DNA from: a candidate division WOR-3 bacterium | GTDB lineage: Bacteria > Hydrothermota > Tepidihabitantia > Tepidihabitantales > Tepidihabitantaceae | Direction of reading: 5' to 3' | DNA length: 64,000 nt | Assembly (NCBI GenBank): GCA_965648905.1 | Contig: CBFGIT010000001.1 | Span: 8,704 to 72,703, forward strand | Shown here: piece by piece, positions 23,796 to 60,902 of the stretch | Layout: each line of letters opens with the position of its first letter | How positions within the stretch are numbered: the first letter of the stretch is position 1 | The notes under the pieces: model-generated | Database searches by the model: none | What the model saw: only the letters and a program-made list of their open reading frames with translations | Told to the model about the DNA's origin: nothing | Position numbers and translations under genes: made by a program

Positions 23796-25178
23796 GTGGC
23801 CGGTGCGGCAGCAACGGCCGCAGTCTATCTCTTGACCTTTTGTTGGCCGCGGCTACGATGGCCGGTGGTCAAGCACTTCGCCCCGGTGCTCAAGATCCGC
23901 AACTTCGCACTGCTCGTTTCAAGCGCCAGCGTTTCCCAGTTCGGAGACCGGTTGACCCACATGTTGCTGATTACGGTCATCGGCGCCACCCGGCCGGGCA
24001 GCCTGCTGGCGTTTTCTGCCGGGTCGCTTGTCTTCATCGTTCCGACCATGGTTCTTGCACCGCTGGCCGGGGTGCTGGCCGACCGCTGGGACAAACGCCG
24101 GGTCGTGTTTCTGGCTCACTTCGCCCAGTCTGCTCTGCTTGTGGTTGCCGCCCTGCTGATTGCCTGGTCGGGAAGCTTCGCACCTTTCTGGGTCGCCCTG
24201 TTTCTGTTCTTCGGACTGGACGTGTTCAACAACACCGCTCTGCCTGCGCTTGTACCCGGGATTGTTGCCCGGCGCAAGCTGCTCTTGGCCAACTCGGTGA
24301 ATCTGACGTTTGGCCGGGTCGCAACTATTCTCGGCATGGTTGCGGGCGGGTTTCTGCTCCGCTGGACCGGCTGGAAGTACGGGATGTTCATCAATGCGTC
24401 TACCCATCTCTGCGCCGGGCTGCTGGCATTCTCCATGTCCGGCGGTACGCGAAAGCGGGGACAGTCCCAAGGAGCGCGAGAACGCGCGGGACCGGCCCGC
24501 CTGCGCGCGACGCGCGGGCAGGCCCCGCTTTCGACCGGCTTGGCCGGACTGGTGCGCGATTCGGTCCGACGACTGGTCTTTGACCTGGCCGAGCTGGTTC
24601 GGGTCGTGGCCGTGAATCGGGTGGTCGCGTTCGTCATGGCTTCGGTCGTTGTCGCCACGTTTGTCTCTTCGGTTTCGTACACCGTGCTCGTGTTCGTGGT
24701 CCAGCAGGTACTCGGACTGGGCACTGCGGGCGTGGGCCTGGCCGCCGGGGTCATGGCGGTCGGGATGGTGGCTGGTGCCGCGGGCATGGGTCTGCTCCGG
24801 GCAAGGGTGAACCGGCCGATGGTTGTGGTTGTAGTCATTGCCGGGTATGGGCTGTTGTTCCTTGCCGGCCCGCTGCTGCTCTCGATTCCTTTTGTCGTGG
24901 TTGTCGCCCTGGCTGCCGGAGTGATGTTCTCTTTGCTGGGCATTGTGCAGAACACGATGCTGCACGAGACGGTCGAGCCCGAGGTTCAGGGCCGGGTCTT
25001 CTCAACCCGGGAGTTCGTGGTCAATCTGACGTTTCTTCTGAGCACGCTTCTGGTCGGCGCACTCGGCGACCTGACTTCCTATCGGGTGGTCTTTGTTGTT
25101 ATCGGGCTGGTCTTGACCGGGCTTGGTGTGCTCGGCTGGTTTGCAGCCCGGAAACTGGGACGGGCCGGGTACGGATGA
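23796..25178 (+). CDS. MFS transporter (EntS/macrolide-efflux-like, 12 TM)
   Basis: Polytopic, with MFS motif-A-like VLADRWDKRRV. The start is ambiguous (GTG 23796, TTG 23829 or GTG 23865). Confidence 0.75.
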   Translation: MAGAAATAAVYLLTFCWPRLRWPVVKHFAPVLKIRNFALLVSSASVSQFGDRLTHMLLITVIGATRPGSLLAFSAGSLVFIVPTMVLAPLAGVLADRWDKRRVVFLAHFAQSALLVVAALLIAWSGSFAPFWVALFLFFGLDVFNNTALPALVPGIVARRKLLLANSVNLTFGRVATILGMVAGGFLLRWTGWKYGMFINASTHLCAGLLAFSMSGGTRKRGQSQGARERAGPARLRATRGQAPLSTGLAGLVRDSVRRLVFDLAELVRVVAVNRVVAFVMASVVVATFVSSVSYTVLVFVVQQVLGLGTAGVGLAAGVMAVGMVAGAAGMGLLRARVNRPMVVVVVIAGYGLLFLAGPLLLSIPFVVVVALAAGVMFSLLGIVQNTMLHETVEPEVQGRVFSTREFVVNLTFLLSTLLVGALGDLTSYRVVFVVIGLVLTGLGVLGWFAARKLGRAGYG

Positions 25179-31574: not shown

Positions 31575-34500
31575 ATGCCGAGAACCTTCTCCGCTTGGCT
31601 TGTCTGCACTGTCTGTTTTTCCTCGGCGCTCGCCTTGCCGGGCGCACGTTACCTGATAATCACCGCTGACGCTCTGGCCGGTGCGGTTCAGCCGCTGGCC
31701 GAGTGGAAGACGACAAAGGGAATGGCGGCAAGAGTCGTGCCGCTTTCCGAGGCCGGAACCACGCCCGCCGCAATCAAGGCATACATCCTCAACGCGTATC
31801 AGAACTGGCCGGTTCGACCCGAGTTCGTGCTGCTGGTCGGCAGTCCGACCCTGGTACCAAGCTATCAGAGCTGGGATGACGGCTACTATGGGAACATGGT
31901 CGGTAATCGGCTGGTCGAGTTGCCGGTCGGCCGTCTGCCTGCGGCGACCGCGCGCGAGTGCAGCACCATGGCCGCCAAAATCCTGGCCTATGAGAACCCC
32001 GCACCCGGTGCTGATTCAACGTGGTATCTTAAGGGCACGACCGTGGTGCGCGAAGACGTGCCGCCTGATGCTTACTACATGGCCGACGCCCGGCTCGTGC
32101 ACAACTGGTGGCTCGGTGCCGGTTACACCATGGTCGAGAGTCTGAGCAACGTCTACGGTGATTCCAGCACTGACGTCAATGCGGCCGGAAGTGAAGGTCG
32201 GGCCTTTGTGCTCTATCGCGGTCAGGCAACGGCAACCTGGTACACACCATTTCACCAGGTCACTTTTGGTAGCTGGACCAATGGCACCAAACTGCCAGTC
32301 ATTGTCAGCGCGACCTGCTATACCGTGACCTTAGCACCGGGCGAGTCGTTCTACGGCGACCAGGCAGTGCGGGCCGGGACTCCGGCTGTGCCCGCGGGCG
32401 CAGTCGCATTCTTCGGCCCAAGCCGTGGTGCGAGCAGCGTGTCGCGCTACCGCAGCGCGGCCGCGCGCGGGTTCTTCCGCGCCCTGTTCGAGGAGAACAG
32501 GTTCCGACTGGGCGACGCCTGTCTGCGCGGCAAGTTCGCGGTTGATTCGCTCTACGGCGACTCGGTCCGCTACATCGAGTGGAACCTGCTCGGCGACCCG
32601 GAGCTGAACGTCTGGACCGGTGTACCGCGGCGACCGACTGTTGTTCACGACACGGCCGTGTCTAGAGACAGCACTGTTTTTCAGGTTGAAGTTCGGGCCT
32701 CGGGCGCACCGGTGGCCAATGCCCTGGTCTGCGTCGCCATGGACTCAACGGTCTACGAGTACGGTGAAACCGACGACGCCGGTCGGGTTCAGCTTGTCAT
32801 CTGTCCGCTCCATTCCGGCAACCTGACTGTCACTGTGACCGGCCGGAACCTGAGGCCTTATCAAGGCACCTGCCGCGTGACCGGTCAGGACATTGCGTGC
32901 ACCAGGGTTGTGGCGCCGGTCGGCGTGATTGACTCGGGCACGGTTGTTACTCCCGAATGTGAGCTGTTCAACGCCGGCAGCACAACAGAAACCTACCCGG
33001 TGCGGATGCGCTTTGGCGGCACGTATGACCAGACCGTGGTCGTGGTCGGACACCCGGCCGGAACGACGCGTCGGGTCCAGTTCGCGAGCTGGACCGCCCT
33101 GCGCCGGGGCACGTTTGCGGTCCGTTGCTCGTGTTCTTTGACCGGTGACCGGGACAGCACCAACAATCTCGCGGTTGACTCGGTCTCGGTCCGAGTCAGA
33201 GATGTTGGTGTCGCCGTGCTTGTTGCCCCGCGCGGCGGAGTTCTTGTCGGATTGCCAGTGGTACCGGCCTGTACGGTGCGTAACTACGGGACCAGTACTG
33301 AAGACTACCAGGTGCGGATGACAATCGGTGCCGATTACTGCGAGTCGGTTGCAGTTGCCGGACACCCGGCCGGCACAAGCCAACTAGTCCAGTTTCCGAC
33401 CTGGCTGGCCGGCCCGCCCGGCGCGCTGGCCGTGCGTTGCTCTACCGAGCTCGGGCCGGACCAGGTCAAGGCGAATGACTGGGCCACCGCCCTGATTGCG
33501 GTCGACTTCGTGGATGTGATGGTGAAGGCGGTACTGCGGCCCTTTCTCGTCGGCCGCGTCGGCCAGGTGGTCATTCCGCGTTTGCGCATCGGCAACTCCG
33601 GCGGTGCTGCCAGCGTCTGCGGCCTCAGAGTCGAGATCTATGACCCGGCCAACGTTCTGGTCTATGCTGCGGCCGACACCGGACTTGTGGTTGAACCGGC
33701 TGCGGTGCTGGAGCACGATTTTGCCCGGCCCTGGGTGCCGGCCGCAACCGGTGCCTATCGGATCGTCGCTTTCGTCAGCGCAATGGGCGATACCTGCCAG
33801 GCCAACGATACCCTGCGCTCAACCTGCACGGTTCGCACCGGCACAATCGGCTGGCAGTCCGGCCCGGCCCTTGTGTCGGGTGCCGGCCCGGTTGGTGCCG
33901 GTGGCTGGCTGGCCGGCGCCGAGGGCGACCTGCGCTTCTACGCAGCCAAGGGTAACCGCACCGCCGAGTTCTACTCCTTTGACCCAGTCAGCATTGCTTG
34001 GACCACTCGGCAGTCACTACCGGCCTTGCCGGACGGACAGCTTCCGGGAAAGGGAGCCGCCGGCTGTTCCGACGGTCAGGGCTGGGTCTATGCTGTCAAA
34101 GGCAACAATACCCTGAGCTTCTACCGATACCGGACCAGCGCCGACTCCTGGCAGACACGAGCCGACGTGCCGCTGGGTACCTACCGGAAAAAAGTCAAGG
34201 CCGGAACCGACCTGGTGTTTGCTCCTGGGCCGGACTCGTCCGGGCCCGGCTCTGTCTACCTGCTCAAAGGGCCGAAGGATGAGTTCTATCGCTACGACCC
34301 GGGCCGCGACGCCTGGCAGACACTCGCCTCACCCCCGGCTGGCCGGGCTCCGAAGTGGAACCTCGGGTCCTGGCTGGTCTCTGACGGCGACAGCCTGATC
34401 TACGCGCACAAGGCCAAGTACCACGACTTCTGTGTCTACAACCTGAAGAACAATACGTGGAGCAGCAAACCCTCGGGCATGCCGCTGGTCAGCCGGATTA

Positions 34501-35096
34501 CGGGCAAGAGCAAGGAATCCAAGGACGGCGGCTGCGCAACGTGGTTCGAGTCGAGCATCTATGCGCTCAAAGGCGGCAGCACCCAGGAGTTCTGGCAGTA
34601 CACGCCGCGTTCCGACTCCTGGCATGAGCTTGACACCATGCCTCAGGTCGGCACAGGCGGCAAGAAGAAGAAAGTCAAGGCCGGGGCTGACATCGTCGGA
34701 TTGGGTGGAGTCCTCTACGCCCTCAAGGGCAACAAGACTCTCGAGTTCTGGCAGTACGTGCCGCAGACGCTGGACGCGGTACGCTTGACGCCCGACGCCG
34801 GCGGGGTGGTAACAAACGTGATGCGTGACGCGTCTGATTTCGTGCGTCTGTCACCCAACCCGCTGCGCACCGGCTGCACGACACTGAGGCTGAGTCAACG
34901 GCTGACCCAGTATTCCGATGGTCCGCTAGAGGTCAGTATCATTGACGTCTCCGGTCGTCTCGTTTTCCGTTCGTCATTCGCCACTCGGACTTCGTCATTG
35001 CCTCTTGACCTGCGTGGTTTGAGCGCCGGCGTCTACGCCGTGCGTCTGTCCAGCGGCAGCAACTCGGTGACAAGGAAGCTCGTGGTCCAGCACTGA
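31575..35096 (+). CDS. gingipain-like cysteine peptidase (C25 family) with CARDB/Ig-like repeats, kelch-like beta-propeller and T9SS C-terminal sorting domain
   Basis: Signal peptide, C25 catalytic-domain N-terminus (YLIITADALAGAVQPLAEWKTTKG), several ~100-aa CARDB-like repeats, propeller repeats and a CTD ending VYAVRLSSGSNSVTRKLVVQH. Confidence 0.85.
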   Translation: MPRTFSAWLVCTVCFSSALALPGARYLIITADALAGAVQPLAEWKTTKGMAARVVPLSEAGTTPAAIKAYILNAYQNWPVRPEFVLLVGSPTLVPSYQSWDDGYYGNMVGNRLVELPVGRLPAATARECSTMAAKILAYENPAPGADSTWYLKGTTVVREDVPPDAYYMADARLVHNWWLGAGYTMVESLSNVYGDSSTDVNAAGSEGRAFVLYRGQATATWYTPFHQVTFGSWTNGTKLPVIVSATCYTVTLAPGESFYGDQAVRAGTPAVPAGAVAFFGPSRGASSVSRYRSAAARGFFRALFEENRFRLGDACLRGKFAVDSLYGDSVRYIEWNLLGDPELNVWTGVPRRPTVVHDTAVSRDSTVFQVEVRASGAPVANALVCVAMDSTVYEYGETDDAGRVQLVICPLHSGNLTVTVTGRNLRPYQGTCRVTGQDIACTRVVAPVGVIDSGTVVTPECELFNAGSTTETYPVRMRFGGTYDQTVVVVGHPAGTTRRVQFASWTALRRGTFAVRCSCSLTGDRDSTNNLAVDSVSVRVRDVGVAVLVAPRGGVLVGLPVVPACTVRNYGTSTEDYQVRMTIGADYCESVAVAGHPAGTSQLVQFPTWLAGPPGALAVRCSTELGPDQVKANDWATALIAVDFVDVMVKAVLRPFLVGRVGQVVIPRLRIGNSGGAASVCGLRVEIYDPANVLVYAAADTGLVVEPAAVLEHDFARPWVPAATGAYRIVAFVSAMGDTCQANDTLRSTCTVRTGTIGWQSGPALVSGAGPVGAGGWLAGAEGDLRFYAAKGNRTAEFYSFDPVSIAWTTRQSLPALPDGQLPGKGAAGCSDGQGWVYAVKGNNTLSFYRYRTSADSWQTRADVPLGTYRKKVKAGTDLVFAPGPDSSGPGSVYLLKGPKDEFYRYDPGRDAWQTLASPPAGRAPKWNLGSWLVSDGDSLIYAHKAKYHDFCVYNLKNNTWSSKPSGMPLVSRITGKSKESKDGGCATWFESSIYALKGGSTQEFWQYTPRSDSWHELDTMPQVGTGGKKKKVKAGADIVGLGGVLYALKGNKTLEFWQYVPQTLDAVRLTPDAGGVVTNVMRDASDFVRLSPNPLRTGCTTLRLSQRLTQYSDGPLEVSIIDVSGRLVFRSSFATRTSSLPLDLRGLSAGVYAVRLSSGSNSVTRKLVVQH

Positions 35097-49673: not shown

Positions 49674-52600
49674 CTAGCGCTGGAGCACGAGTTTCTGACT
49701 GACTGAGTAAACGCCTGCGTTCAGACGCACCGTGTATACGCCGGCACTCAAGCCACGCAGGTCGAGCGGCAATGACGAAGTCCGAATGCCGAATGACGAG
49801 CGGAGGACGCGGCGGCCTGAGGCGTCGTAGATGCTGATGCTCGGGACACGATCCGAAATGCCGGGCACTTGGGTCATGTCCCAGCACAGCGTGGCGAAGC
49901 CGGAGCGGAGCGGGTTGGGCGTGATGGTGAACCCGGCCGGTCGCCTATCGAACGCCGAGGCCAGTACGCCAGACCGGGCTGCCCGGCCCGTGGCCAGGGG
50001 CAGTACGGTTGAGCCCGGTGTGTACATCCAGAACTCCTGGGTCTTGTTGCCCTTGAGCGCAAAGCACATGCCGGATCGGCCTGATACGTAGGGCGTGATG
50101 TCGCCGCCGAGCTTGACCTTCTTCTTCTTGCCGGTCGAGCCAAGCTCGGGCATCGCTTCCTGTTCCTGCCAGGAGTCGGCGGCAGCCAGGTATTTCCACA
50201 GCTCGGTTGTGTTACCGCCTTTGAGCGCGTAGACGCCGTCGTGCAACCACGCACCGGCCGCGCCGTCTTTCGACTTCTTGGACTTGCCCAGTCGGCCGAT
50301 GAGCGGCATGCCCGGCCGATTCGGACCCCAGGCATCGTCGATGATGTCATAGGCGAAGAGGACGTGATACTTGGCCTGGTGCACAAACACGGTCCGGTCG
50401 TCGTCATAGACCGCAAACGAGCCCGGGCCGAGCTTAAGTACGGGCGCGGGAATTGAGGCAAGTGGAGTCCAAGAGTCACTCACCGGGTCATAGCGGTAGA
50501 ACTCGTTCTTGTCGCCCTTGACAAGGTAGACCTTGCCCTGGGCATACGCGACATCAGCGCCGCCTTTGACCCGCCGGTTTGAGGTGCCGAGCGGGACCGG
50601 CTCAAGGGCTGACCAGGAGTCGTGTGCCGCATCGTACCGGTAGAAGCCCTGGGTGTTGTTGCCTTTGACCATGTAGACCAGGCCGTTACCGTCAGCGCAG
50701 GCATTGGCGCCTTTGCCGACCAACTTGTTCTCAACTCCGGCCGGAATCGGGCGGCGTGCGCTCCAGGAGTCGCCGACCGGGTCATAGGCGTAGAAGTCCG
50801 CGGTCTTGCCCCCGGCCGCAGCGTAGACCTTCATCGTTGCCGGCTCACCGACAACAAACGCACCAGCCTTGGCCGCAAGGGGCAGGCGGGCACGTTCAAG
50901 CCAGGGCGGCGGCGGCGGCCCGGTGATGAAGCTGAACTGACCGGTGAGCGTATCGTTGGCCGGGTTACCGTCGTAGGCAACACTGGTCGAGCAACGAGTC
51001 GTGTAGCTGCCTGGATCGTGTGGTTTGGGCAGAGTATCAAAGCCTACCATCACCGAACTGCCCGGAGCCAGACTGGTGACCGTGCGGCTGCTTGAGTAGA
51101 TGACCGAGTTGGCCTGGTCCAGAATCCGGAAGAACACGGTCGGCGCAGCGGCAAAGTTGCCCTGGTTGCGCACGGTTGCTGCCGGCACAACGACTGCGCC
51201 GGTATCGACACTGCCGACCGGAGAGTTGATTGCGCTCACGCCCACGTCCACCCGGCCGACGGTGAATGCCTGAGCTAGCGAATCGTTCGCCGGCACTTGA
51301 TCACCGCTCATCCTTGAGCGGCAGACCGCAGTGTACGATCCGGTCCAGGCATCCCAGTTCGGGAAGGTCGCGGTTGTATCGACACCCGAGGGCAGACCCA
51401 GAGGCAGGTCCAGGCTCTCAAGATACGCGGGCGATGAGTTGATGGCGAAGAACAGGCGGACCGGGTCGCGCTGCGTGCCGTAGTTGTGCACGACCGCGGC
51501 TGGCATGGTCGGCCCGGGCGGCACCATGCCTGAGGGCGACACAATCTGCGTTACACCGACATCACGCACCGCAACATAGACCGTGCCAAGCACCGTGTCG
51601 TTCGCGGCTACCATGTCTGCGGCGAGCATGGTCGTGCATCTTGTTGCTAGGGCACCGCGCTGGAGCGCGGTCCAGGACGCAAAGTTCACCGCCTGCGATG
51701 CACCGGCAGCCAGATTGGTCACGGTCTGGGTGTTCGAGTAGCCAGAGCCGATGTTGAGCCGGACATTGAACGTCGCCGCCTGAGTCCCGTTGTTCCGGAC
51801 TGTGGCCTGGGGCGCAATCACTGCGCCCGAATCGACCGTGCCGGTCGGAGCATTGATCGATACTGCCTCGGCGTCGAGCACGCGGACAAACACGTTCCCG
51901 GTCGCGATGTTGTTAGCCGGAACCATGTCACCAGTCAGCATCGTGGTGCATCTTGTCGCCAGAGTGCCGCGCTGGAGCGCGGTCCAGGACGCAAAGTTCA
52001 CCGCCTGTGACGCACCGGCGGCCAGATTGGTCACGGTCTGGGTGTTCGAGTAGCCGGAGCCGATGTCGAACCGGACATTGAATGTCGCCGCCTGAGTCCC
52101 GTTGTTCCGGACTGTGGCCTGGGGCGCAATCACTGCGCCCGAATCGACCGTGCCGGTCGGCACATTGATTGATACTGCTTCAGCATCGAGCACGCGCACA
52201 AGAACTGACCCGGTGTCACGGTCATTAGCCGGGGCAATGTCACCCGGGAGTTCGGTCGAGCATCGCACCACCTGGATACCGCGCGGCCAGTTCGAGCCGG
52301 CCAAGAAGGTCACATAGCGTGCCGTGCCCGGCGCATGAGCGGTGATGGCTGCGATCTGGTTGTAGCTCGACCCGATTCTCATCCGCACCTGGTAATCAAC
52401 CGTGCTCGAGCCGTAGTTGTACACTGTGCAGGCCGGAACCACCGACTGGGTCGAGTCGATCGTGCCGGTTGGTACTATGATGCGGCGCACGCCGACGTCG
52501 CCGACCTGGCGGCTGACGTCACCGGTAATGGTCCAGGCAAAGGGCTGGCGCGCGCTCGTTGCCACTTGGAAACCGTAAACCCGGATCGTCCAGACCCCGG

Positions 52601-54605
52601 TCGCCGGTGAGTTGACGCGGACGCACTCCTCAACGTTCAGCGTATCCCAGACAGTCGGGTTCGGCGTTGACTGGCCCCCAGAATACTGGTTGCCGCGATA
52701 GACTGTTCCGCCCGGAGCAATCACTTCGAGGTTCAGGTTGTTGACCAGGGTGCGCGACGCGCTGGGCGCGGCTGCAGTGTCGGTCCAGGCCAGGGCAACT
52801 CGCAGCGGAATCGAGGAGTTCACCACGAACTGCTCTTCCTTGTACTGGCCGGTGCTCACGCCCGAGGTGTCGTCTTTGATAATCAGCTTGCGCGTATCAC
52901 CAGCAAAATAGAGCACCGAGTCAGCATCAATCCGGCCCCAGCCGATATCGAAGCTAGGCACGACGTACGACCCGATGTTCGGGTCAGCCGAAGCAACGGC
53001 CATCGAACGCAGCAGGGCCGCGCTGATATACGAGATGCTGTCAGCCGGGTTCGCAGTTCCGGTCGGATAGTAGCCCTCACGCAGATAGCAGCGCATCAAA
53101 CCGACCGTGCCGTTGACTGCTGGCGTTGCCATTGAAGTTCCGGACATCTGCTGGTAGGTATTGGTCCCGGACGACGTCGCCGAGTACAGATTCACCCCTG
53201 GCGCGCAGACCGTCGGCTTCAGCCGATTGTCCGCGGTCGGCCCGCGGCTGGAAAAACTGGCAATGGCGTTCGACGAAGTGCCGTTCTGGGTCGCACCGAC
53301 CGTAATCACGTTCTTGGCAATACCGGGATTGCGGATCCGCCGCGTGCTCGTCTCGTTGCCGGCAGCCATGATATTGAGGAAATCCTTGTATACCCAGGAG
53401 TAGTTGTCGGTCGAGGCGTCCATCAGCAGATAGGTTCCGCTCGAGTTGGACCAGCCCCAACTTCCCGAGTGCTGACGAATCGGCCGCAGCGAGTCAGGCA
53501 GACCCCGGCCAAGATAGACCGAGTCCCAGAGCGGAGTCAGGTCATCGCTGATGACGAAGGTCCCGGAGCTGTTGGTCAGGTCAACAAAGTAGAGGCGTCC
53601 CTTGATTGACATGCCATCGTAGTAGCTGGTCCCGCCCGTGACCGAGTCGTCGCCCGCCACCGTGCCGTTGACGTGGCTGCCGTGGTAGGGCGTTTCACCC
53701 TGTTGTGCGCCCTGATACAGCTTGAACGCAACGACTTTGCGGTGCGTCGGCCATATCCCGGGCGCAGTCACCGACAGGTTCGGGTCACGGAAAAGGTTAT
53801 GGCCAAGGTTCAGTCCGGTGTCGGTCGTTGATAGAATCACCCGCTGGCCGCGCACACCTTTCGCCCAGACCTTGCGCGCCGTCATGCTCGTGTCCGGCGG
53901 CGCAGTTGACTGCCAGCCGGTCTGCACGACCCACTGGCAGTTGTTGTTACACAGCTCAGGCTCGGTCCAGAGCTGAACCCAGATAACCTCCTGCAGCCGG
54001 GCAATCGCCGGTATTGCCGAGGCCGGAACCGTCACCGTTATCGACGTGCAGAACTCAGACTCGACCACATCGGCATACGCCGCACCCTGGTCAGCCAGCA
54101 CCTGAAGAATGGGTCGGTGCTCCTCGCCCGGGGTCACGACGATGACCAGTTTGACGCTGCCCGAAGCACTAAGCAGTACGTCCTGTAACTTGTACGCCGG
54201 CTGAAACAGACCGACCCAGTGCACCATCGGCAATGCCTGGACTGCGGCCTTCTGGGCCGGTTCGAGCTTGGCCAGAACCGCGTAGCTCGGCAGGTAGCCG
54301 AAAGGCCGGACATCAATTCGCCTGAGCTCCTGATACCACTCCGGCCTTATCGGGCCGTTGAACTGGATGATGTGGTAGGCAGGGCCGGGCTGGTGTTCGG
54401 AAAGCGCCAGCTCCGGCGGGATTGCAGACACGCCGGTTCGGGTATCGACCACGAACCCGTTGGAAAAACTGACTTCGTTCAGCTCATTTCCTGCCACCGG
54501 GTCAAAGTGCCGCGCCGGGCCCATGCTGTAGTGCGATGACGGTCGGGCAGAACCGTTGCTGGCCAGCGCGCAAAGAACGGACAGGCAAACGACGAGCGCT
54601 TTCAT
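49674..54605 (-). CDS. subtilisin-like serine protease (S8) with I9-like propeptide, tandem CARDB domains, kelch-like beta-propeller and T9SS C-terminal sorting domain
   Basis: Catalytic triad motifs TDTGLNLGHNLF (Asp), HGSHVNGTVAG (His) and MSGTSMATP (Ser). Signal peptide from ATG 54605 with an AGGAGG SD. CTD ends VYTVRLNAGVYSVSQKLVLQR. Contains a tandem 312-bp duplication. Confidence 0.9.
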   Translation of the reverse strand: MKALVVCLSVLCALASNGSARPSSHYSMGPARHFDPVAGNELNEVSFSNGFVVDTRTGVSAIPPELALSEHQPGPAYHIIQFNGPIRPEWYQELRRIDVRPFGYLPSYAVLAKLEPAQKAAVQALPMVHWVGLFQPAYKLQDVLLSASGSVKLVIVVTPGEEHRPILQVLADQGAAYADVVESEFCTSITVTVPASAIPAIARLQEVIWVQLWTEPELCNNNCQWVVQTGWQSTAPPDTSMTARKVWAKGVRGQRVILSTTDTGLNLGHNLFRDPNLSVTAPGIWPTHRKVVAFKLYQGAQQGETPYHGSHVNGTVAGDDSVTGGTSYYDGMSIKGRLYFVDLTNSSGTFVISDDLTPLWDSVYLGRGLPDSLRPIRQHSGSWGWSNSSGTYLLMDASTDNYSWVYKDFLNIMAAGNETSTRRIRNPGIAKNVITVGATQNGTSSNAIASFSSRGPTADNRLKPTVCAPGVNLYSATSSGTNTYQQMSGTSMATPAVNGTVGLMRCYLREGYYPTGTANPADSISYISAALLRSMAVASADPNIGSYVVPSFDIGWGRIDADSVLYFAGDTRKLIIKDDTSGVSTGQYKEEQFVVNSSIPLRVALAWTDTAAAPSASRTLVNNLNLEVIAPGGTVYRGNQYSGGQSTPNPTVWDTLNVEECVRVNSPATGVWTIRVYGFQVATSARQPFAWTITGDVSRQVGDVGVRRIIVPTGTIDSTQSVVPACTVYNYGSSTVDYQVRMRIGSSYNQIAAITAHAPGTARYVTFLAGSNWPRGIQVVRCSTELPGDIAPANDRDTGSVLVRVLDAEAVSINVPTGTVDSGAVIAPQATVRNNGTQAATFNVRFDIGSGYSNTQTVTNLAAGASQAVNFASWTALQRGTLATRCTTMLTGDMVPANNIATGNVFVRVLDAEAVSINAPTGTVDSGAVIAPQATVRNNGTQAATFNVRLNIGSGYSNTQTVTNLAAGASQAVNFASWTALQRGALATRCTTMLAADMVAANDTVLGTVYVAVRDVGVTQIVSPSGMVPPGPTMPAAVVHNYGTQRDPVRLFFAINSSPAYLESLDLPLGLPSGVDTTATFPNWDAWTGSYTAVCRSRMSGDQVPANDSLAQAFTVGRVDVGVSAINSPVGSVDTGAVVVPAATVRNQGNFAAAPTVFFRILDQANSVIYSSSRTVTSLAPGSSVMVGFDTLPKPHDPGSYTTRCSTSVAYDGNPANDTLTGQFSFITGPPPPPWLERARLPLAAKAGAFVVGEPATMKVYAAAGGKTADFYAYDPVGDSWSARRPIPAGVENKLVGKGANACADGNGLVYMVKGNNTQGFYRYDAAHDSWSALEPVPLGTSNRRVKGGADVAYAQGKVYLVKGDKNEFYRYDPVSDSWTPLASIPAPVLKLGPGSFAVYDDDRTVFVHQAKYHVLFAYDIIDDAWGPNRPGMPLIGRLGKSKKSKDGAAGAWLHDGVYALKGGNTTELWKYLAAADSWQEQEAMPELGSTGKKKKVKLGGDITPYVSGRSGMCFALKGNKTQEFWMYTPGSTVLPLATGRAARSGVLASAFDRRPAGFTITPNPLRSGFATLCWDMTQVPGISDRVPSISIYDASGRRVLRSSFGIRTSSLPLDLRGLSAGVYTVRLNAGVYSVSQKLVLQR
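51597..52220 (-). repeat. near-perfect tandem duplication (2 x ~312 bp) encoding two almost identical CARDB domains inside the S8 protease gene
   Basis: Landmark gctggagcgcggtccaggacgcaaagttcaccgcctg recurs 312 bp apart. The translated repeats are >95% identical. Confidence 0.8.
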
Positions 54606-54689
54606 GGTGCCTCCTGGATTATTGCTCTGGACCGGGTGAAGTAATCCTACCGGGCATACCATGAAGTGTCAAAATCGGCCGGGCCGATG

Positions 54690-54717
54690 TTGAACCTCTG
54701 CCGGACTTGGCTAGAAT
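54690..54717 (+). promoter_or_regulatory. candidate promoter TTGAAC-16 nt-TAGAAT for the mttB-like operon
   Basis: Located in the 150-bp divergent intergenic region, ~35 nt upstream of ATG 54756. Confidence 0.35.
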
Positions 54718-54755
54718 CGCTTTCTATCCGCCGAACCTGCCCGAAAGGACCACTC

Positions 54756-56210
54756 ATGCGACCCGTACTGCGCCTGTTATCCGACAGCCTGGTTGAACAG
54801 GTCCTGGCCGAAGCCCGGACTCTCCTCTGCGGTCTGGGAATGATCGTGCACAACGACGCGGTGTTGCGACTGCTTGGTGAGCACGGTGCCGAAGTTGACC
54901 TTGCCCGCCACCATGTTCGGTTCAACAACGACATTATCGACTATGGCCTCAAATCCGCTCCCCGCTCATTCAAGCTGTTCGACCTGCTCGGCAACCAGAC
55001 CCATGAGTTTGCTGGCGACAACGTCTATTTCACCCCTGGCTCGGCCGCCTTGAATATCCTTGACTCCAGCACCGGCCAGATGCGGCGACCGAAGACTCCG
55101 GACTATGTCGAGTACGTTAAGCTCGTAAGCGGGCTTGACCACCTTGCGGCTCAGAGTACGGCGCTGATTCCTGATGACGTGCCGGAGCGCATCTCGGACA
55201 GCTATCGGCTGTATCTGAGCCTGCTCTTTGGCGAGAAGCCGGTTGTCACCGGCTGCTTCACTATCGAGTCGTTCGCGGTGATGCGTGACATGCAGGTCAC
55301 GGTCCGGGGTTCAATTGAGGCGCTTGCAGCCAAGCCGCTCACCATTTTCTCCTGCTGCCCGACTGCCCCGCTCAAGTGGAGCGATGTTACTTCTCAGAAC
55401 CTGGTCGACTGCGCAACCTGCGGCATTCCGGTCGAGTTCATCTCGATGCCTTTGTCCGGGTTCATGGCTCCGGTCACGCTCGTGGGAACACTGGTACAGC
55501 ACACGGCTGAGACCCTGAGCGGAGTAGTCATCAGTCAACTTGCCCGGCCGGGTACGCCGGTCCTCTATGGCGGCTCGCCGGCAATCTTCGACGTGCGGCG
55601 CGAAACCACGCCGATGGGTGCAATCGAGACGATGATGACCGACTGCGCTTACTCGGAAATCGGCAAGCATCTTGGCCTGCCGACCCAGGCCTATATTTCC
55701 TTGAGTGATGCCAAACTGCTCGATGCGCAGGCCGGACTTGAGACCGGGGTCGGCGCAATTCTCGCTGCCCTTTCTGGGATCAACAGCGTCTCCGGCCCGG
55801 GTATGCTCGACTTCGAAAGCTGCCAGAGCCTTGAGAAGCTCGTGCTCGACAACGAAGTCTGCGGCATGGCTGTGCGTCTTGTGCAGGGCATCGAGCCGAA
55901 GGACGACTTTCCAGCGCTGCCGCTCTTTGAGGAGCTGCTCAAAGAAGGTCATCTGCTCATCAGCCGCCATACCCGGCGCTGGCTCAAGACCGAGCACTTT
56001 TTCCCGGGTCCGGTTATTGATCGCGCCAACCACGGCCGCTGGCTTTCCGAGGGTGCTCTGACTCTGGCTGAGCGTGCCCGGCAGGAGAAAGAGCGTATCA
56101 TCAGTCGCTGGCAGCCGACAAGACTGCCTGAGGATGTGAAGAGAGAGCTGACCCGTCTGATGAGTGCTGAAGCCCGTCGCTGCGGGATGGAGCGCCTGCC
56201 CGCACTGTGA
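54756..56210 (+). CDS. MttB-superfamily (trimethylamine methyltransferase-like, non-pyrrolysine) substrate:corrinoid methyltransferase
   Basis: 484 aa with full-length similarity to the MttB/MtgB family (COG5598) and no in-frame UAG. Internal ATG with an aaagga SD. Confidence 0.85.
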   Translation: MRPVLRLLSDSLVEQVLAEARTLLCGLGMIVHNDAVLRLLGEHGAEVDLARHHVRFNNDIIDYGLKSAPRSFKLFDLLGNQTHEFAGDNVYFTPGSAALNILDSSTGQMRRPKTPDYVEYVKLVSGLDHLAAQSTALIPDDVPERISDSYRLYLSLLFGEKPVVTGCFTIESFAVMRDMQVTVRGSIEALAAKPLTIFSCCPTAPLKWSDVTSQNLVDCATCGIPVEFISMPLSGFMAPVTLVGTLVQHTAETLSGVVISQLARPGTPVLYGGSPAIFDVRRETTPMGAIETMMTDCAYSEIGKHLGLPTQAYISLSDAKLLDAQAGLETGVGAILAALSGINSVSGPGMLDFESCQSLEKLVLDNEVCGMAVRLVQGIEPKDDFPALPLFEELLKEGHLLISRHTRRWLKTEHFFPGPVIDRANHGRWLSEGALTLAERARQEKERIISRWQPTRLPEDVKRELTRLMSAEARRCGMERLPAL

Positions 56211-56929
56211 GAGCTATCTGCCGATTCGCTGCCACCGACTGCATTCCAGACCGGAGAGACGTGCTTTCAGCCGAAGGCATGGCTGGTTCGAGCCCGGCTT
56301 CAGCCGTGACCGAAGAGCTTCTTACCCGCGCCTTGGCCATGTTCAGCGCGAAGGCAACTCCGGTCGGTGTCTACGCCGACATCAGTATTCCAGAGTTCAG
56401 CGCGGTCTTTGCCGGCGAAGGTCAGAACGACCCTGAGGCGCCGCTTCGTAATATCTTCCCGAGAGCAGACAAGCTCGCCTTGTTTGCCTGTACGGTCGGC
56501 CCAGAGCTGAACCGGCAAATAGCTGACCTGTTCGAGCAGCACGAGTACGCGCTCGGGTATGTGCTTGACGCGGTTTCATCCTGCGGTACCGAGCGTCTTG
56601 CCGACCTGGTTCAGGCTGGCTGGGCGCGGGACATGAACGAATTGTCCGACAATTCGTATCGTGTCCCAAGCCCGCTGGTCGCCCTCGCCTACAGCCCGGG
56701 CTACTGCGGCTGGCACGTTTCTGCTCAGCGGCAGCTGTTCCGGTTTCTGAGGCCGGAGGAGATCGGCATCACCCTCAGGGAAAGCTGCCTGATGGAGCCG
56801 CTCAAGTCGGTTTCGGGCGTGTTCGTTCTTGGCCCGAGAGAGATTCACCAGTTCGACAACACTCTTGGTTTCTGCACCGAGTGTCGGTCTGCCACCTGTC
56901 GCGGCCGGCAGCAATCAGCAAAGGAGTAA
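56207..56929 (+). CDS. MetH-type AdoMet-binding reactivation domain protein (Met_synt_B12-like)
   Basis: C-terminal region AYSPGYCGW..ITLRESCLMEPLKSVSGVFVLGP matches the MetH activation domain signature (RYSxGY..LTESxAMxPxxSVSG). The start is GTG 56207 (overlapping the MttB stop) or ATG 56279. Confidence 0.6.
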   Translation: MRAICRFAATDCIPDRRDVLSAEGMAGSSPASAVTEELLTRALAMFSAKATPVGVYADISIPEFSAVFAGEGQNDPEAPLRNIFPRADKLALFACTVGPELNRQIADLFEQHEYALGYVLDAVSSCGTERLADLVQAGWARDMNELSDNSYRVPSPLVALAYSPGYCGWHVSAQRQLFRFLRPEEIGITLRESCLMEPLKSVSGVFVLGPREIHQFDNTLGFCTECRSATCRGRQQSAKE

Positions 56930-56930
56930 G

Positions 56931-57566
56931 ATGGAACTACTAGCTCAACTTGGTCAGGCACTGGAGCAGGGCGATGAAGAACGCACTGCCGAACTTGCCC
57001 GGCAGGCGGTCGCAGCCGGCATCCCGGCCAAAGCAATACTCAACCAGGGGCTGATTGCGGGCATGAACAGCGTCGGCGTTCTGTTCCGCGACGGCGAGAT
57101 ATTCCTGCCTGACGTGCTGCTTGCGGCCCGGGCAATGTATGCCGGACTGGACGTAGTCAAACCTCTGCTCGTCGAACAGAAGGTCGAGCCGCTCGGCCGG
57201 GTTGTCATCGGCACGGTTCAGGGCGACCTGCACGACATCGGCAAGAACCTGGTCGGCATCATGCTGCGGGGCGCCGGGTTCGAAGTCATCGACCTGGGCA
57301 ACGACGTTGCACCCGAGCGGTTTGTCGACACGGCGGAAAAAGAAGGCGCACGGGTCATCGGCCTCTCGGCTTTGCTGACGACCACGATGCCGGTGATGAA
57401 AAAGGTATGCGACCTGGTGACGCAGCGCAACCTGCACGACCGCATCAAGGTCATCATCGGCGGCGCACCGGTGACCGAGGAGTATGCCCGACAGATACAG
57501 GCTGATGCCTACGGCTTTGACGCCGCAGCCGCAGTCGATCGGGTCAAACAGCTCATGGGGACATGA
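56931..57566 (+). CDS. cobalamin-binding corrinoid protein (B12-binding_2 + B12-binding, DxHxxG)
   Basis: GDLHDIGKN motif and a Rossmann B12-binding domain, 211 aa. SD aaggag; starts 1 nt after the upstream stop. Confidence 0.85.
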   Translation: MELLAQLGQALEQGDEERTAELARQAVAAGIPAKAILNQGLIAGMNSVGVLFRDGEIFLPDVLLAARAMYAGLDVVKPLLVEQKVEPLGRVVIGTVQGDLHDIGKNLVGIMLRGAGFEVIDLGNDVAPERFVDTAEKEGARVIGLSALLTTTMPVMKKVCDLVTQRNLHDRIKVIIGGAPVTEEYARQIQADAYGFDAAAAVDRVKQLMGT

Positions 57567-57604
57567 CCAAATCTCGCCTGGGAGATTCGGATCGTGTCCC
57601 CGGA
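57559..57604 (+). repeat. mini-repeat copy 1 (ACATG..AATCTCGCCyGGGAGATTCGGATCGTGTCCCCGGA) with internal 9-bp inverted repeat
   Basis: Spans the start codon of the Hcy-methyltransferase gene and encodes MTKSRLGDSDRVPG. Confidence 0.7.
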
Positions 57605-58519
57605 CCGCTGCTTGCTGACGGCGCGCTCGGTTCGTTGCTGATGGAGCGCGGACTTGCGCCTGGTGAGCCGCCTGAGACGTTTTGCCTTTTTCGACCGGAC
57701 GTGCTGACCGAAATCGTGCGCCAGTACGCTGCCGCTGGTGCTAAGGTGTTCCAGGCCAACACGTTTGGTGCTTCGCCCTTGAAGCTCGCCCGTCACGGAC
57801 TCGAATCCCGCTGCGAAGAAATCAACCAGACAGCGGTTCGTATCGTGCGCGAAGCAGTAGCCGGCAAAGGTCTTGTCTGGGCCTCAGTGGGCCCGAGCGG
57901 TTGCCTGCTTAAGCCATACGGTGACACCGACCCGGAGCGTGTCTGCAGGAGCTTTCTTGCACAGGCGCAGGCACTGGCTCGGGCCCGGCCTGATATCGTC
58001 GCGGTCGAGACCATGACCGACCTTGCCGAAGCAGTACTGGCAGTCAGGGCAGTGCGCACAGCCATGCCGGCGGTGCAACTGGCAGCAACCATGGTCTTTG
58101 ACAAGCGCAGGCGAGGCTTCTTCACGGTCATGGGCAACACGATTGCGGACTGTGTGCAGGCACTGGCTGACGCTGGTGCGAACATGGTCGGCTCCAACTG
58201 CGGCAACGGTATCGAGACCATGGTACAAATCGCCCGCGAGTTCAGGCAGGTGACCAGCCTGCCGCTTGTAATTCGCCCGAACGCCGGCCTGCCCCAGGTC
58301 ACTGCTGGCAGGGACACGGGAGACATGCCCGAATCTCGCCCGGGAGATTCGGATCGTGTCCCCGGAACGCACAAGGTGACGTATCCTGAGACACCGGAAT
58401 TCATGGCTGCGCACCTGCCGGAGCTGCTCGAACAGGGCCTGGCGATTGTCGGCGGCTGCTGCGGCACAACACCAGACCACATCCGTGCGTTCCGCGCCGT
58501 GCTCACGGGAATGTCCTGA
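57563..58519 (+). CDS. homocysteine S-methyltransferase domain protein (MetH N-terminal Hcy-binding module)
   Basis: Zinc-ligand motifs NCG and GGCCGTTPDHI plus ADGALGSLL (DGAMGT-like). ATGA overlap with the corrinoid gene. Carries two copies of a ~46-bp mini-repeat in-frame. Confidence 0.8.
   Translation: MTKSRLGDSDRVPGPLLADGALGSLLMERGLAPGEPPETFCLFRPDVLTEIVRQYAAAGAKVFQANTFGASPLKLARHGLESRCEEINQTAVRIVREAVAGKGLVWASVGPSGCLLKPYGDTDPERVCRSFLAQAQALARARPDIVAVETMTDLAEAVLAVRAVRTAMPAVQLAATMVFDKRRRGFFTVMGNTIADCVQALADAGANMVGSNCGNGIETMVQIAREFRQVTSLPLVIRPNAGLPQVTAGRDTGDMPESRPGDSDRVPGTHKVTYPETPEFMAAHLPELLEQGLAIVGGCCGTTPDHIRAFRAVLTGMS
58320..58366 (+). repeat. mini-repeat copy 2 (same ~46-bp element, ~90% identical) inserted in-frame in a loop of the Hcy-methyltransferase
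   Basis: Encodes DMPESRPGDSDRVPG, a ~20-aa insertion relative to MetH between the NAGLP and GGCCGT regions. Stem CCGAATCTC/GAGATTCGG. Confidence 0.7.
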
Positions 58520-58553
58520 CTGCGGCTGCGGTATATCGCCGCGGAGGTAGTCA

Positions 58554-60902
58554 ATGCTCATACTGAAAAAACTCGTGCCCGTGCTCGGCCTGTTCCTGGG
58601 CAATCTGGCCCTGGCCCAGTTGACCGAACTGTCAGAAGAAGACAAGACCCTGTCGCCCTATTTCTTTGTCCAGAGCGACGACCCGTCAGTTGACCGACTG
58701 CCGCTGCTCAAGACCGAAGCGACAGTTGACATCGCCGGCGTCATCGCCGATGTGAAAGTCACCCAGGTTTACAAGAACGACGGCAAGCGGCCGATTGAGG
58801 CAGTTTACACGTTCCCGGCCTCGACCCGCGCCGCAGTCTACGCCATGAAGATGACCATCGGTGACCGGACCATTGTTGCCCGGATCAAGGAACGTGATGA
58901 GGCCCGCCTCGACTACGAAGCGGCCAGACAGCAGGGCAAGAGCGCCTCGCTCTTAGAGCAGCAGCGGCCCAACGTGTTCCAGATGAACGTGGCGAATATC
59001 ATGCCCGGCGACTACATCAAAGTCGAGATGAGTTATACTGAGCTGCTCGTGCCTGTCTCCGGCGTGTATGAGTTTGTCTACCCGACCGTGGTTGGCCCGC
59101 GCTACAACGGCAAGGCCGGGTCCGAGTCGCACAAGCCAGAGCAGTGGGTCAAGAGTCCCTACACCCGCGAGGGCGACGCACCGAGCTACGAGTTCGGCCT
59201 GACGGTCAATATCGTGGCCGGGATGCCACTACAGGACGTCTCCTGCCCGACCCATAAGACAATGATTGCTTTCAACGGCTTGAATGAGGCGAGCGTGCGG
59301 CTCGACCCGTCAGAGAAAGCCGGCGGCAACCGCGACTTCATCCTGCGCTACCGACTCGCCAGCAGCGGAATCCAGACCGGCCTCTTGCTCTACCCGGGCA
59401 AGGACGAGCAGTTCTTCCTCCTTATGCTGCAGCCGCCCAAAAGGGTTGAGGTCAGCCAGATTCCAGCGCGCGAGTACATCTTCATACTCGACGTGTCCGG
59501 CTCGATGCACGGGTTCCCTTTAGACATCTCCAAGAAGCTGATGCGGAACCTGCTCTCCAACCTGCGGCCCAAAGACTGCTTCAACATCCTGTTCTTCTCC
59601 GGCGGCAACTTCGCACTTTCGGAAAAGTCGCTGCCTGCGACCGAGAAGAACGTTGCGGATGCGCTTGCGACAATCGAAAAGCAGCGGGGCAGCGGCGGAA
59701 CTGAACTCTTGCCCGCGCTCAGGCACGCGCTGGCGCTGCCGCGTACTGAAGGCGCGTCGCGCACCGTGGTCATTGCCACCGACGGCTACGTGACGGTCGA
59801 AACCGAGGCGTTCGACCTGATTCGGGACAATCTGGACAAGGCCAACCTGTTTGCTTTCGGCATCGGCTCCAGCGTCAACCGGTACATCATCGAAGGCATG
59901 GCCCATGTCGGAATGGGCGAGCCATTCATCATCGACAAGCCGGAACGAGCCGAGGCCCAGGCCGAGAAGTTCCGAGCGTACATCGAAACTCCGGTGCTCA
60001 CCGGTATCGACATCGACTTCCCCGGATTCGACGCCTATGACGTCGAGCCGAAGACTGTTCCGGACGTGACTGCGGACCGGCCCATCATCGTCTTCGGCAA
60101 GTACCGCGGCAGAGCCTCGGGTGCAATTACGGTACGCGGCTGGGCTGGCAAGGGCGGATACTCTGAGGCCGTCAAAGTCACTGACTTCCCGCCGGACAAG
60201 AGGAACGCGGCCTTGCGCTACCTCTGGGCGCGACACCGGATTCAGCTTCTTGCTGACTACAACAACCTCGACGAGGACAAAGAGCGGGCCAAGGAAGTCA
60301 CCAGGCTTGGCCTTGAGTACAACCTGCTGACCCGATACACCTCGTTTGTTGCCATTGACCAGCAGGTGCGTAATGTCGGCGGTAGACCAGAAGTTGTGGA
60401 GCAGCCGCTGCCCATGCCCGAAGGCGTATCCGACTATGCAGTCAGTGGCCGTGGGGTTGCCGGGTACTCTGGTTTGTACAAAGTCGGACGTCCATTTCTC
60501 GGTTCCACCAGTGCGCCGACCAGTGGTGGAGCGCTCATGCCCGAACCTGAAGCCGCATCCCAGTCCCCGGTGCTGCGTGGTACAGTCCGGCTTGTCAAGC
60601 TCGAGGCAATTGGCGGTCGGTCCGAGCAGTCGGTCAAAGGCGTCATCGAGAAGAAGCTTGCGGACATCCGGGCCGCATACGTACAGGAGCTTGCGACCGA
60701 CCCAACGCTCGCGGGCAGGCTCGCGCTTGAGTTCACCATCGGGCCTGACGGCACGGTACGCGAAGCCAGGGCGGTGCGCAACGAACTGAGCCCCGGACTT
60801 GAGCGCAAGGTGCTCGAACTCGTGAGAAGCCTTCGCTTCCAGAAGTTTCAGGGCCGCACTACAACCGTATCGCTGGCCCTTGATCTAAGGCCATGGCCAT
60901 GA
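58554..60902 (+). CDS. secreted VIT + von Willebrand factor type A domain protein
   Basis: Signal peptide, VIT-like N-domain, vWA MIDAS motif DVSGSM, and a C-terminal domain of unknown type. Confidence 0.8.
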   Translation: MLILKKLVPVLGLFLGNLALAQLTELSEEDKTLSPYFFVQSDDPSVDRLPLLKTEATVDIAGVIADVKVTQVYKNDGKRPIEAVYTFPASTRAAVYAMKMTIGDRTIVARIKERDEARLDYEAARQQGKSASLLEQQRPNVFQMNVANIMPGDYIKVEMSYTELLVPVSGVYEFVYPTVVGPRYNGKAGSESHKPEQWVKSPYTREGDAPSYEFGLTVNIVAGMPLQDVSCPTHKTMIAFNGLNEASVRLDPSEKAGGNRDFILRYRLASSGIQTGLLLYPGKDEQFFLLMLQPPKRVEVSQIPAREYIFILDVSGSMHGFPLDISKKLMRNLLSNLRPKDCFNILFFSGGNFALSEKSLPATEKNVADALATIEKQRGSGGTELLPALRHALALPRTEGASRTVVIATDGYVTVETEAFDLIRDNLDKANLFAFGIGSSVNRYIIEGMAHVGMGEPFIIDKPERAEAQAEKFRAYIETPVLTGIDIDFPGFDAYDVEPKTVPDVTADRPIIVFGKYRGRASGAITVRGWAGKGGYSEAVKVTDFPPDKRNAALRYLWARHRIQLLADYNNLDEDKERAKEVTRLGLEYNLLTRYTSFVAIDQQVRNVGGRPEVVEQPLPMPEGVSDYAVSGRGVAGYSGLYKVGRPFLGSTSAPTSGGALMPEPEAASQSPVLRGTVRLVKLEAIGGRSEQSVKGVIEKKLADIRAAYVQELATDPTLAGRLALEFTIGPDGTVREARAVRNELSPGLERKVLELVRSLRFQKFQGRTTTVSLALDLRPWP

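Follow-up and report, generated by a model that had tools for sequence, protein, structure and literature searches.

Small hairpin repeats read in frame inside genes of a candidate division WOR-3 bacterium

In a 64,000-nucleotide (nt) stretch of DNA from a candidate division WOR-3 bacterium (contig CBFGIT010000001.1; the whole stretch is referred to as the window), the gene for a homocysteine S-methyltransferase carries two nearly identical palindromic segments, designated c1 and c2. This locus raises the question of what kind of sequence these segments represent and how an enzyme gene came to contain two of them. An earlier note on this DNA had suggested a mini-element tolerated inside the enzyme and resembling either repetitive extragenic palindromes (REP) or miniature inverted-repeat transposable elements (MITE). 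The analysis described here supports that suggestion. The element is not unique to the methyltransferase gene, as four copies are present in the window, at least 117 loci were found elsewhere, and an identical 41-mer lies in an unrelated gene; nor is the encoded peptide conserved in all orthologues, 25 of 28 being without it. We consider it probable that c1 and c2 belong to a dispersed family of very small, non-autonomous, REP/MITE-like hairpin repeats that are tolerated in frame inside genes.

The repeat pair in the methyltransferase gene

A repeat search of the window identified a direct repeat of 52 nt at positions 57557-57608 and 58319-58370, in which 47 of 52 positions (90%) are identical and the two starts are separated by 762 nt, corresponding to 254 codons. 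This is the most similar pair of elements in the window. The 25-mer GGGAGATTCGGATCGTGTCCCCGGA, common to both copies, occurs exactly twice in the window, compared to 0.00 occurrences expected from 100 shuffles. Both copies are read in the frame of the methyltransferase open reading frame (ORF), c1 encoding MTKSRLGDSDRVPG and c2 encoding DMPESRPGDSDRVPG, which confirms the two roughly 90% identical copies in one frame reported before. Each copy is predicted to fold stably, with -35.2 kcal/mol (z -5.3) for c1 and -32.4 kcal/mol (z -3.0) for c2. The 9-bp inverted repeat noticed earlier is present; the palindrome is, however, larger than described, because an outer 9-bp stem, GGGACAUGA/UCGUGUCCC, surrounds a 9-bp inner stem, resulting in one long hairpin per copy.

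Comparison with related genes and proteins revealed that the description of the element as inserted twice applies to c2 only, c1 being a replacement at a gene junction with zero net length gain. Against the solved structure of the homocysteine domain of MetH (1Q7M), the c2 site corresponds to a gap of exactly 21 residues, and c2 together with a partial core directly 5' of it encodes a 21-residue insertion, RDTGDMPESRPGDSDRVPGTH. Copy c2 is therefore a true insertion in a loop that is short in MetH, as had been proposed with a length of about 20 residues. An insert at this position is found in 3 of the 28 aligned orthologues, namely, in the window protein and in P0002 and P0003, the two proteins closest to it (73% identity); in the protein search, the gene fell among relatives from candidate division WOR-3. 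In the DNA alignment, the c2 site is empty in L121 and L122 and filled with 45 nt in L003. L001 has two copies at this site, one of them lying nested, in opposite orientation, within the loop of the other, and L003 has an additional opposite-orientation copy elsewhere in the methyltransferase gene, a 48-nt insertion read as GHDPDSPGGIGSCP. The partial core next to c2, GGGACACGG, resembles the left end of an opposite-orientation copy and may be the remnant of a second hit at the c2 site; the same layout is present in L033, L013, L018, L021, and L087.

The AlphaFold2 model of the methyltransferase has a mean predicted local distance difference test (pLDDT) value of 90.7. Values are low only for residues 1 to 10 (46), which are encoded by c1, and for residues of about 250 to 270 (55 to 59), the c2 region, which is modelled as a loop between two short strands. 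In the TIM barrel, the 21 residues from c2 lengthen a hairpin loop at the protein surface. An internal alternative start at position 58326, considered previously, is without support, as this ATG is a fixed triplet of the element core and lies in the middle of the barrel.

Copy c1 is located where the gene for a corrinoid (B12-binding) protein ends and the methyltransferase gene begins. Its core, GGGGACATGACC, provides both the TGA stop codon of the upstream gene (57564-57566) and the ATG start codon of the downstream gene (57563-57565), which overlap as ATGA. The start codon had been attributed to this copy correctly; the N-terminal extension proposed along with it does not exist, since the N terminus has the same length as those of P0002 and 1Q7M. 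The corresponding junctions in relatives illustrate the stages of this rewriting. In L122, an 18-nt spacer precedes a native start, and in L001 only GGGACATGACC is left. L003 possesses a full element whose core supplies a TAA stop and whose own inner stem supplies an ATG; the native N-terminal helix comes next. In the window, a full element is directly followed by PLLADG, so that about 36 nt of native codons are missing; c1 has replaced the native N-terminal stretch of about 13 residues. The interior of c1 matches c2 and the c2-site copy of L003, not the junction copy of L003. Because its interior belongs to the c2 subfamily, c1 was probably derived from c2, most likely as a later copy or by conversion from c2 with the shared cores serving as homology.

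The hairpin family in the window and beyond

Two further complete hairpins, c3 and c4, share the outer stem of c1 and c2 and differ from them in their inner stems (Table 1). A 15-nt match in the gene for an S8 protease, previously taken as a possible third vestige, is present but located at 49843-49857 instead of 49848-49862 and is part of a complete third copy, c4. A match to this 15-mer with one mismatch at 56653-56667 falls within c3, the fourth complete copy, which had been overlooked. The motif GACATG-N15-35-CGTGTCC occurs four times in the window, with 0.03 occurrences expected. A covariance model, R1, built from 62 copies of the family, recovered exactly c1 to c4 as intact copies in the 64 kb, with scores of 52 to 59 bits; the element is asymmetric, as the same copies score merely 22 to 33 bits on the reverse strand. 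All four are intragenic, lie on the sense strand of ORFs with Pfam support, and are read in one frame, giving (G/R/W)DM...S(D/Y)RVP(G/S). Copy c3 sits in a variable linker of a gene for a Met_synt_B12-like protein, where an alignment of orthologues shows no element in L001, L121, and L122. Copy c4 is located in the loop between the first two strands of a Por_Secre_tail C-terminal sorting domain (PF18962).

The unit is an imperfect palindrome of approximately 45 to 48 nt, with a range of about 45 to 65 nt across the family. It features a fixed 9-bp stem, 5'-GGGACAUGA/UCGUGUCCC-3', containing a single U.G (T.G) pair and followed by one bulged A, and an inner stem of 8 to 10 bp whose sequence varies with complementarity kept, closed by a loop of 4 to 20 nt. 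The consensus of the 62 copies is GGGACATGA...ATCGTGTCCC, flanked by gcgcG...Caagc or by variable outer stems. Such an additional outer stem, with compensatory changes of its own, is found in many lineages, e.g., GGAATTCG/CGAATTCC in one metagenome-assembled genome (MAG) of Armatimonadetes. Terminal inverted repeats are present as well: when the right arm is reverse-complemented to GGGGACACGATCC, it is one base and one indel apart from the left arm, GGGGACATGA-CC. Base pairing is strongly maintained: 98% of the cells in the 62 copies are paired, compared to 84% in shuffles, and 135 double-sided changes were counted against 39.6 expected, concentrated in the inner stem, which was unconstrained by the search pattern. 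Within the core, G/A at position 8 covaries with C/U on the opposite arm. Only one of the six reading frames of the unit is interrupted by a stop codon. Unit lengths of 45 or 48 nt, multiples of three, are common as deduced from one insertion, and spacings of 38 and 41 nt between the cores dominate in coding-type copies, a qualitative statement because lineages were mixed in the flank-based typing and many copies are close to the end of an ORF.

In 596 Gb of species-representative genomes, at least 117 loci display the core pattern GGGACATRA-N12-36-GGATYGTGTCCC, compared to about 27 expected by chance according to a hand estimate. The titles of the listed matches cover at least 8 phyla and include WOR-3, Aminicenantes/Acidobacteriota, several Desulfobacterota groups, Armatimonadetes, Planctomycetota, Bipolaricaulota, Dehalococcoidales, Alphaproteobacteria, and Polyangiaceae; among the matches listed, several genomes have matches on 5 to 8 separate contigs, and about one tenth of the matches show extra half-cores, nesting, or arrays. 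Assignment of frames by the longest ORF, which is crude in GC-rich DNA, gave 19 copies in S0, 21 in S1, 15 in A0, 22 in A1, and 18 in A2; 45 copies lay outside any ORF of at least 150 residues. All five stop-free frames and both strands are occupied, the other frames giving peptides such as GHDP..SCP, GTRSE..VMSR, and GDTIRI... A single universal reading frame, as the window copies alone would suggest, was therefore rejected. Copies of the Desulfobacterota type are clearly intergenic.

A search of metagenomes with the c1/c2 interior returned five contigs. Two of these contain the orthologue of the methyltransferase gene. In L124 and L127, the identical 41-mer is located in a variable region of the fold of a saccharopine-dehydrogenase homologue (E 2.7e-96 to 2AXQ), and in L126 this 41-mer occurs in a further context. 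The loop of the WOR-3-type sorting domain, bounded by RGVLxLP and LLDxxGR, contains the element in four combinations of orientation and frame across paralogues and is empty in others. In our reading, the tag is very permissive and often duplicated, and copies have survived in it repeatedly; a preference of the element for this target is the alternative.

Table 1. Copies of the element, partial copies, and host genes in the window
Feature	Position	Strand	Description
c1	57556..57602	+	Covariance-model match, 58.5 bits, E 1.3e-14; spans junction of corrinoid-protein and methyltransferase genes
c2	58318..58364	+	Covariance-model match, 51.8 bits; inside methyltransferase gene
c3	56626..56669	+	Covariance-model match, 59.4 bits; inner stem ACGAATTG/CAATTCGT; encodes RDMNELSDNSYRVPS
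c4	49841..49884	-	Covariance-model match, 54.1 bits; inner stem CCCAAGTG/CATTTCGG; encodes WDMTQVPGISDRVPS
Extra partial core GGGACACGG	58312..58320	+	Just 5' of c2; perfect complement of 3' core CGTGTCCC
Possible solo core GCGGGGACAGTCCCAAGG	24456..24470	not assigned	Covariance-model match, 13.1 bits, E 0.18; both ends and typical flanks, no interior
Homocysteine S-methyltransferase gene	57563..58519	+	318 residues; PF02574, E 2.4e-58; match to 1Q7M, E 2.4e-42; hosts c1 and c2
Corrinoid (B12-binding) protein gene	56829..57566	+	PF02310 and PF02607; last two codons and stop (GGG ACA TGA) within c1
Met_synt_B12 (activation-domain-like) gene	56207..56929	+	PF02965; hosts c3; two genes upstream of methyltransferase gene
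S8 protease gene	49674..54662	-	1,662 residues; C-terminal sorting domain (Pfam on last 408 residues); hosts c4

The host genes of c1, c2, and c3 belong to a four-gene operon (54666-58519) comprising an MTTB-family methyltransferase (PF06253), the Met_synt_B12-like protein, the corrinoid protein, and the homocysteine S-methyltransferase. It resembles a split MetH-like corrinoid methyl-transfer system, and its gene order is kept in L001, L121, and L122. The S8 protease gene contains a 300-nt tandem duplication (51557-51856 and 51869-52168, 85% identity) encoding a repeated module of about 104 residues (VLDAEAVSINxPTGTVDSGAVIAPQATVRNNGTQAATFNVR...). A second large secreted protein, encoded by ORF 31575..35096, has both Kelch repeats and a Por_Secre_tail domain in common with the protease; the two tails (34810-35096 and 49674-49960) are 81% identical at the nucleotide level, and the loop at the c4 position has the same length in this ORF and no hairpin.

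Proposed history and rival explanations

If the copies form a dispersed repeat family, their history might be sketched as follows. New copies would have been added both to new sites and into existing copies, the latter leading to nesting, and interiors were probably exchanged by gene conversion through the shared cores. As to the mode of mobilisation of the hairpin, we infer a trans-acting enzyme that would recognise either distinct left and right ends or a folded single strand; end- or fold-specific recognition is suggested because the core is asymmetric. With a unit length that is a multiple of three and five stop-free frames, copies in tolerant places (here loops, linkers, termini, and secretion-tag loops) could persist as translated, disordered peptides, and unit lengths in multiples of three would presumably be selected for. 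A bolder extension, which we put forward tentatively and regard as possible though doubtful, assumes a cross-phylum class of 'nano' mobile hairpins. Its invariant, asymmetric 9-bp core with the T.G pair and the bulged A would be the recognition site of a horizontally spreading enzyme acting on folded single-stranded DNA. The hairpins would preferentially re-target their own copies, giving rise to nesting and interior replacement, and would routinely colonise ORFs. If this were true, such hairpins would be a widespread, ongoing source of protein-loop insertions in uncultured anaerobes, comparable to the Rickettsia palindromic elements (RPE) but far outside Rickettsia and at one third of their size.

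Several points weigh against a mobile repeat family. All-against-all BLAST of ORFs of at least 150 and at least 90 residues from 120 loci revealed no transposase and no other recurrent gene up to about 4 kb from the elements; the recurrent ORFs were exclusively host families (ABC ATPases, histidine kinases, and sorting-domain proteins). Target-site duplication was not demonstrated, the filled and empty sites being too diverged for a call and the flanks beyond the outer stems showing no consistent direct repeat. Copies c1, c3, and c4 show no net length gain over homologues, and an extra step is therefore needed for them, either later deletion or overwriting by conversion. Conservation of c2 above neighbouring synonymous sites between the window and L003 could signify function instead of selfish persistence. 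Furthermore, the phylum assignments are the depositors' titles of MAGs, and the conservation of the core across the scanned loci results partly from construction, since the search pattern fixed the core and left the inner stem free.

Other searches were likewise negative. Orphan half-cores exist, none of which brackets a transposase-like ORF in the 120 loci. The plasmid and phage collections gave chance-level matches only, and the literature search for the core sequences returned unrelated primers and oligonucleotides only. Rfam 15 yielded no match at the gathering score in 6 loci and none on the elements at E<=5 in window positions 56400-58600.

The conservation data bear on the possibility that the hairpin is a cis element beneficial to the host, recruited and kept by selection, which would act either in DNA, as a site for a nucleoid or topology protein, or in RNA, through mRNA stability, processing, or forced translational coupling at the ATGA of c1. 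The E. coli REP sequences and bacterial interspersed mosaic elements have been described as binding sites of such a nucleoid or topology protein. A comparison of the window with L003 gives identity at 36 of 38 positions of the c2 element, compared to 74.4% in the gene body, and at 12 of 12 third codon positions of the element, compared to 54.7% in the body. In L124 and L127, 52 of 52 positions agree, with 83.5% identity in the gene body; 34 of these bases are fixed by the search pattern, so that the 18 flanking bases, all identical, are informative. Pairing kept by compensatory changes, a core common to several phyla, and the burial of the c1 start codon in a -35 kcal/mol stem at the stop/start overlap point in the same direction. 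Such conservation is compatible with selection on the hairpin and also with homogenisation among copies, and the equivalent copy in L001 is not more conserved (31/38), its stem being different and still perfectly paired. Moreover, most orthologues are without the hairpin, Rfam offers no match even at the permissive threshold, and the scatter over loops, tails, linkers, and intergenic DNA, along with nesting and half copies, suggests proliferation and not placement. On the opposite strand, the U.G pair is turned into a C.A mismatch; even so, there is no sense-strand bias (about 40 sense and 55 antisense copies by longest ORF), which argues against an RNA-level role dependent on this pair. Overall, we regard recruitment as a cis element as rather unlikely.

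The remaining explanations are less probable still. Integron attC sites are imperfect palindromes in which the core is conserved, the middle keeps only its structure, and extrahelical bases mark the strand; they also carry the R-box GTTRRRY/RYYYAAC. The hairpins share the conserved core, the structure-only variable middle, and the extrahelical base, and they could be imagined as attC-like or Xer-like recombination sites that, as folded single strands, swap segments or cassettes, such as sorting-domain tails, between genes; one sorting-domain loop is indeed occupied in many paralogues, and the direct-repeat pair c1/c2 brackets 762 bp. The R-box is, however, absent from the consensus, the copies do not lie between cassettes or in arrays of uniform orientation, no integrase or recombinase recurs near the elements in the 120 loci, and recombination between c1 and c2 would delete most of the essential TIM barrel, leaving this idea with little probability. 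Selection of a short linear motif at the protein level (DM..SDRVP) would account for the common frame of the four window copies. It is effectively refuted by copies elsewhere in other frames, on the other strand, and in intergenic DNA; in addition, 25 of the 28 orthologues do not have the peptide, the regions concerned are predicted to be disordered, and nucleotide-level covariation of the inner stem goes along with a changing peptide, so that we give this explanation very little credence. A recoding signal, i.e., a hairpin like a selenocysteine insertion sequence (SECIS) following the UGA in GGGACAUGA, or a gap bypassed by the ribosome or spliced, is suggested by the position of the UGA immediately 5' of a stable hairpin; anaerobes are often rich in selenoproteins, and many of the host phyla are anaerobic. 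Yet in c3 and c4 this UGA is not in frame, c2 lacks it (GCC for GAC), in c1 it is the true stop of the upstream gene, and many copies have UAA instead, while the host ORFs are read through in frame and the 38/41-nt length bias would be needless if the segment were skipped. A bacterial SECIS was rejected, there being no in-frame UGA read as selenocysteine in the window copies, and recoding in general appears highly improbable. Finally, the similarity of c1 and c2 within one gene might reflect a simple internal duplication with no wider element. This is refuted by the copy census, including the two window copies in other genes, and by the 41-mer in the saccharopine-dehydrogenase homologue, and it retains next to no probability.

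Comparison with known repeats and further observations

Among known systems, the RPEs behave in a similar way. They are described (Ogata et al. 2000, 2002, as summarised in PMC10969869 and PMC2229807) as palindromic, hairpin-forming repeats of 105 to 150 bp, restricted to Rickettsia, that occur in intergenic DNA and in frame in conserved genes, where they encode peptides at positions tolerated by the fold; RPE-containing enzymes are reported to be still active, and in-frame palindromic repeats in conserved enzymes are documented mainly for Rickettsia. The window family likewise consists of hairpin palindromes found in intergenic DNA and fused in frame where the fold tolerates a peptide, as seen at c2 (21 residues, low pLDDT) and in the saccharopine-dehydrogenase homologue. 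By length and host range alone it is set apart, with 45 to 65 nt and, by title, at least 8 phyla of largely uncultured bacteria, and it differs further in its fixed core, its freely covarying inner stem, the use of several frames and both strands, and the frequent nesting. The family is new; it works like the RPEs and is not a member of them.

REP sequences are extragenic by definition, carry a 5' GT(A/G)G, are species-specific in sequence, and are mobilised by REP-associated tyrosine transposases (RAYT; TnpA-REP, HUH Y1 transposases), whose gene is single-copy or absent nearby. The window family resembles REPs and REPINs in being short, multi-copy, imperfect palindromes (four copies in 64 kb, 98% paired), in stem irregularities that make the two strands non-equivalent (here the T.G pair and the bulged A), and in clusters, half copies, and head-to-head arrangements. 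In contrast to REPs, all four window copies are intragenic, with c2 interrupting a TIM barrel, GTAG is absent from the consensus of the 62 copies and its flanks, and the core is common to several phyla. The ORFs up to about 4 kb from the elements in the 120 loci included no RAYT. A core shared across phyla is unusual for REP-like repeats, and model R1 provides a handle for finding the enzyme by co-occurrence.

The 107-bp form of Correia/NEMIS, ERIC, and YPAL are MITEs with ORFs, terminal inverted repeats, and some in-frame host fusions (Delihas 2008, PMC2229807). Terminal inverted repeats, a long stem-loop, non-autonomy, and occasional in-frame host fusion are shared with the window family. 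These MITEs are, however, 100 to 170 bp long and typically show target-site duplications, of TA or another sequence, together with a recognisable parent insertion sequence, whereas the window unit is about three times smaller, with no detectable target duplication and no parent insertion sequence in the flanks of about 4 kb in 120 loci. Small dispersed repeats of heterocyst-forming cyanobacteria, reportedly described by Elhai et al. in 2008 as hairpins of tens of nucleotides, nested and present in coding sequence, are a lead only; their host lineage is different, and their sequences are not known to be related to the family studied here.

An element far smaller than RPEs that colonises conserved enzymes in frame in WOR-3, and that has relatives in many uncultured phyla, would show that palindrome-driven evolution of protein loops is general. 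In practical terms, gene calling, orthology, and domain boundaries in MAGs can be misjudged because of insertions of 15 to 21 residues, rewritten junctions, and nested copies.

Several related arrangements were seen in passing. The solo core of Table 1, examined together with a listing of the GGGACAGTCCC motif occurrences in the window, might speculatively and only weakly be regarded as a vestige of the element. The palindrome GGGAC(A/T)GTCCC, corresponding to the outermost arms of the element without an interior, recurs at this site (with GCG...AAGG flanks), in L124 at approximately 1500-1580 (+), and in L102 at 2448-2480; in L124 it occurs twice in an insertion of about 24 residues in the saccharopine-dehydrogenase homologue (MGTVPS...RTVPG). 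This palindrome may represent either the footprint left by a deletion or a related mini-family. L020 (6497-6680) contains arrays of repeated 5' cores with a 30-nt period followed by repeated 3' cores with an 18-nt period, and L061 (about 2650-2850) has shortened elements in 58-nt tandem inside an ORF of 1,093 residues; both look like onion-like or tandem amplifications of the element. In L005 (6400-7950), a half element, a full element, and the short repeat ATGTCCCCGAATTAAGTG lie between HicA/HicB-like and Phd/PIN-like toxin-antitoxin pairs, named by eye, a layout that resembles a cassette array and has no attC signature. In Desulfobacterota-type MAGs, a longer and highly conserved intergenic repeat (ttgatggatt TCAGTGAATTCTGG...CCTGAATTCACGGG ttagctgaat) has the hairpin at its centre; this repeat is present in L004, L009, L042, L052, L059, L062, L070, L082, L083, and L115 and is nearly unchanged between differently named MAGs.

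The orthologous homocysteine methyltransferases also contain other, unrelated small insertions, which, like the units in L122 and L021 given below, may be further families of coding mini-repeats. In alignment columns 41-58 and 131-148, these are PPFVIRNSSFVIPAPAG in P0006, EENDREGSSGSSLGGRRS in P0013, and GKSGTVPACGLSRFSQELWQ in P0016. In L122 (1090-1140), tandem CTGCAATCTGAA units encode SESLQSEVCNLKS, and a similar peptide, QSALCNLES, is found in a sorting-domain loop of L021.

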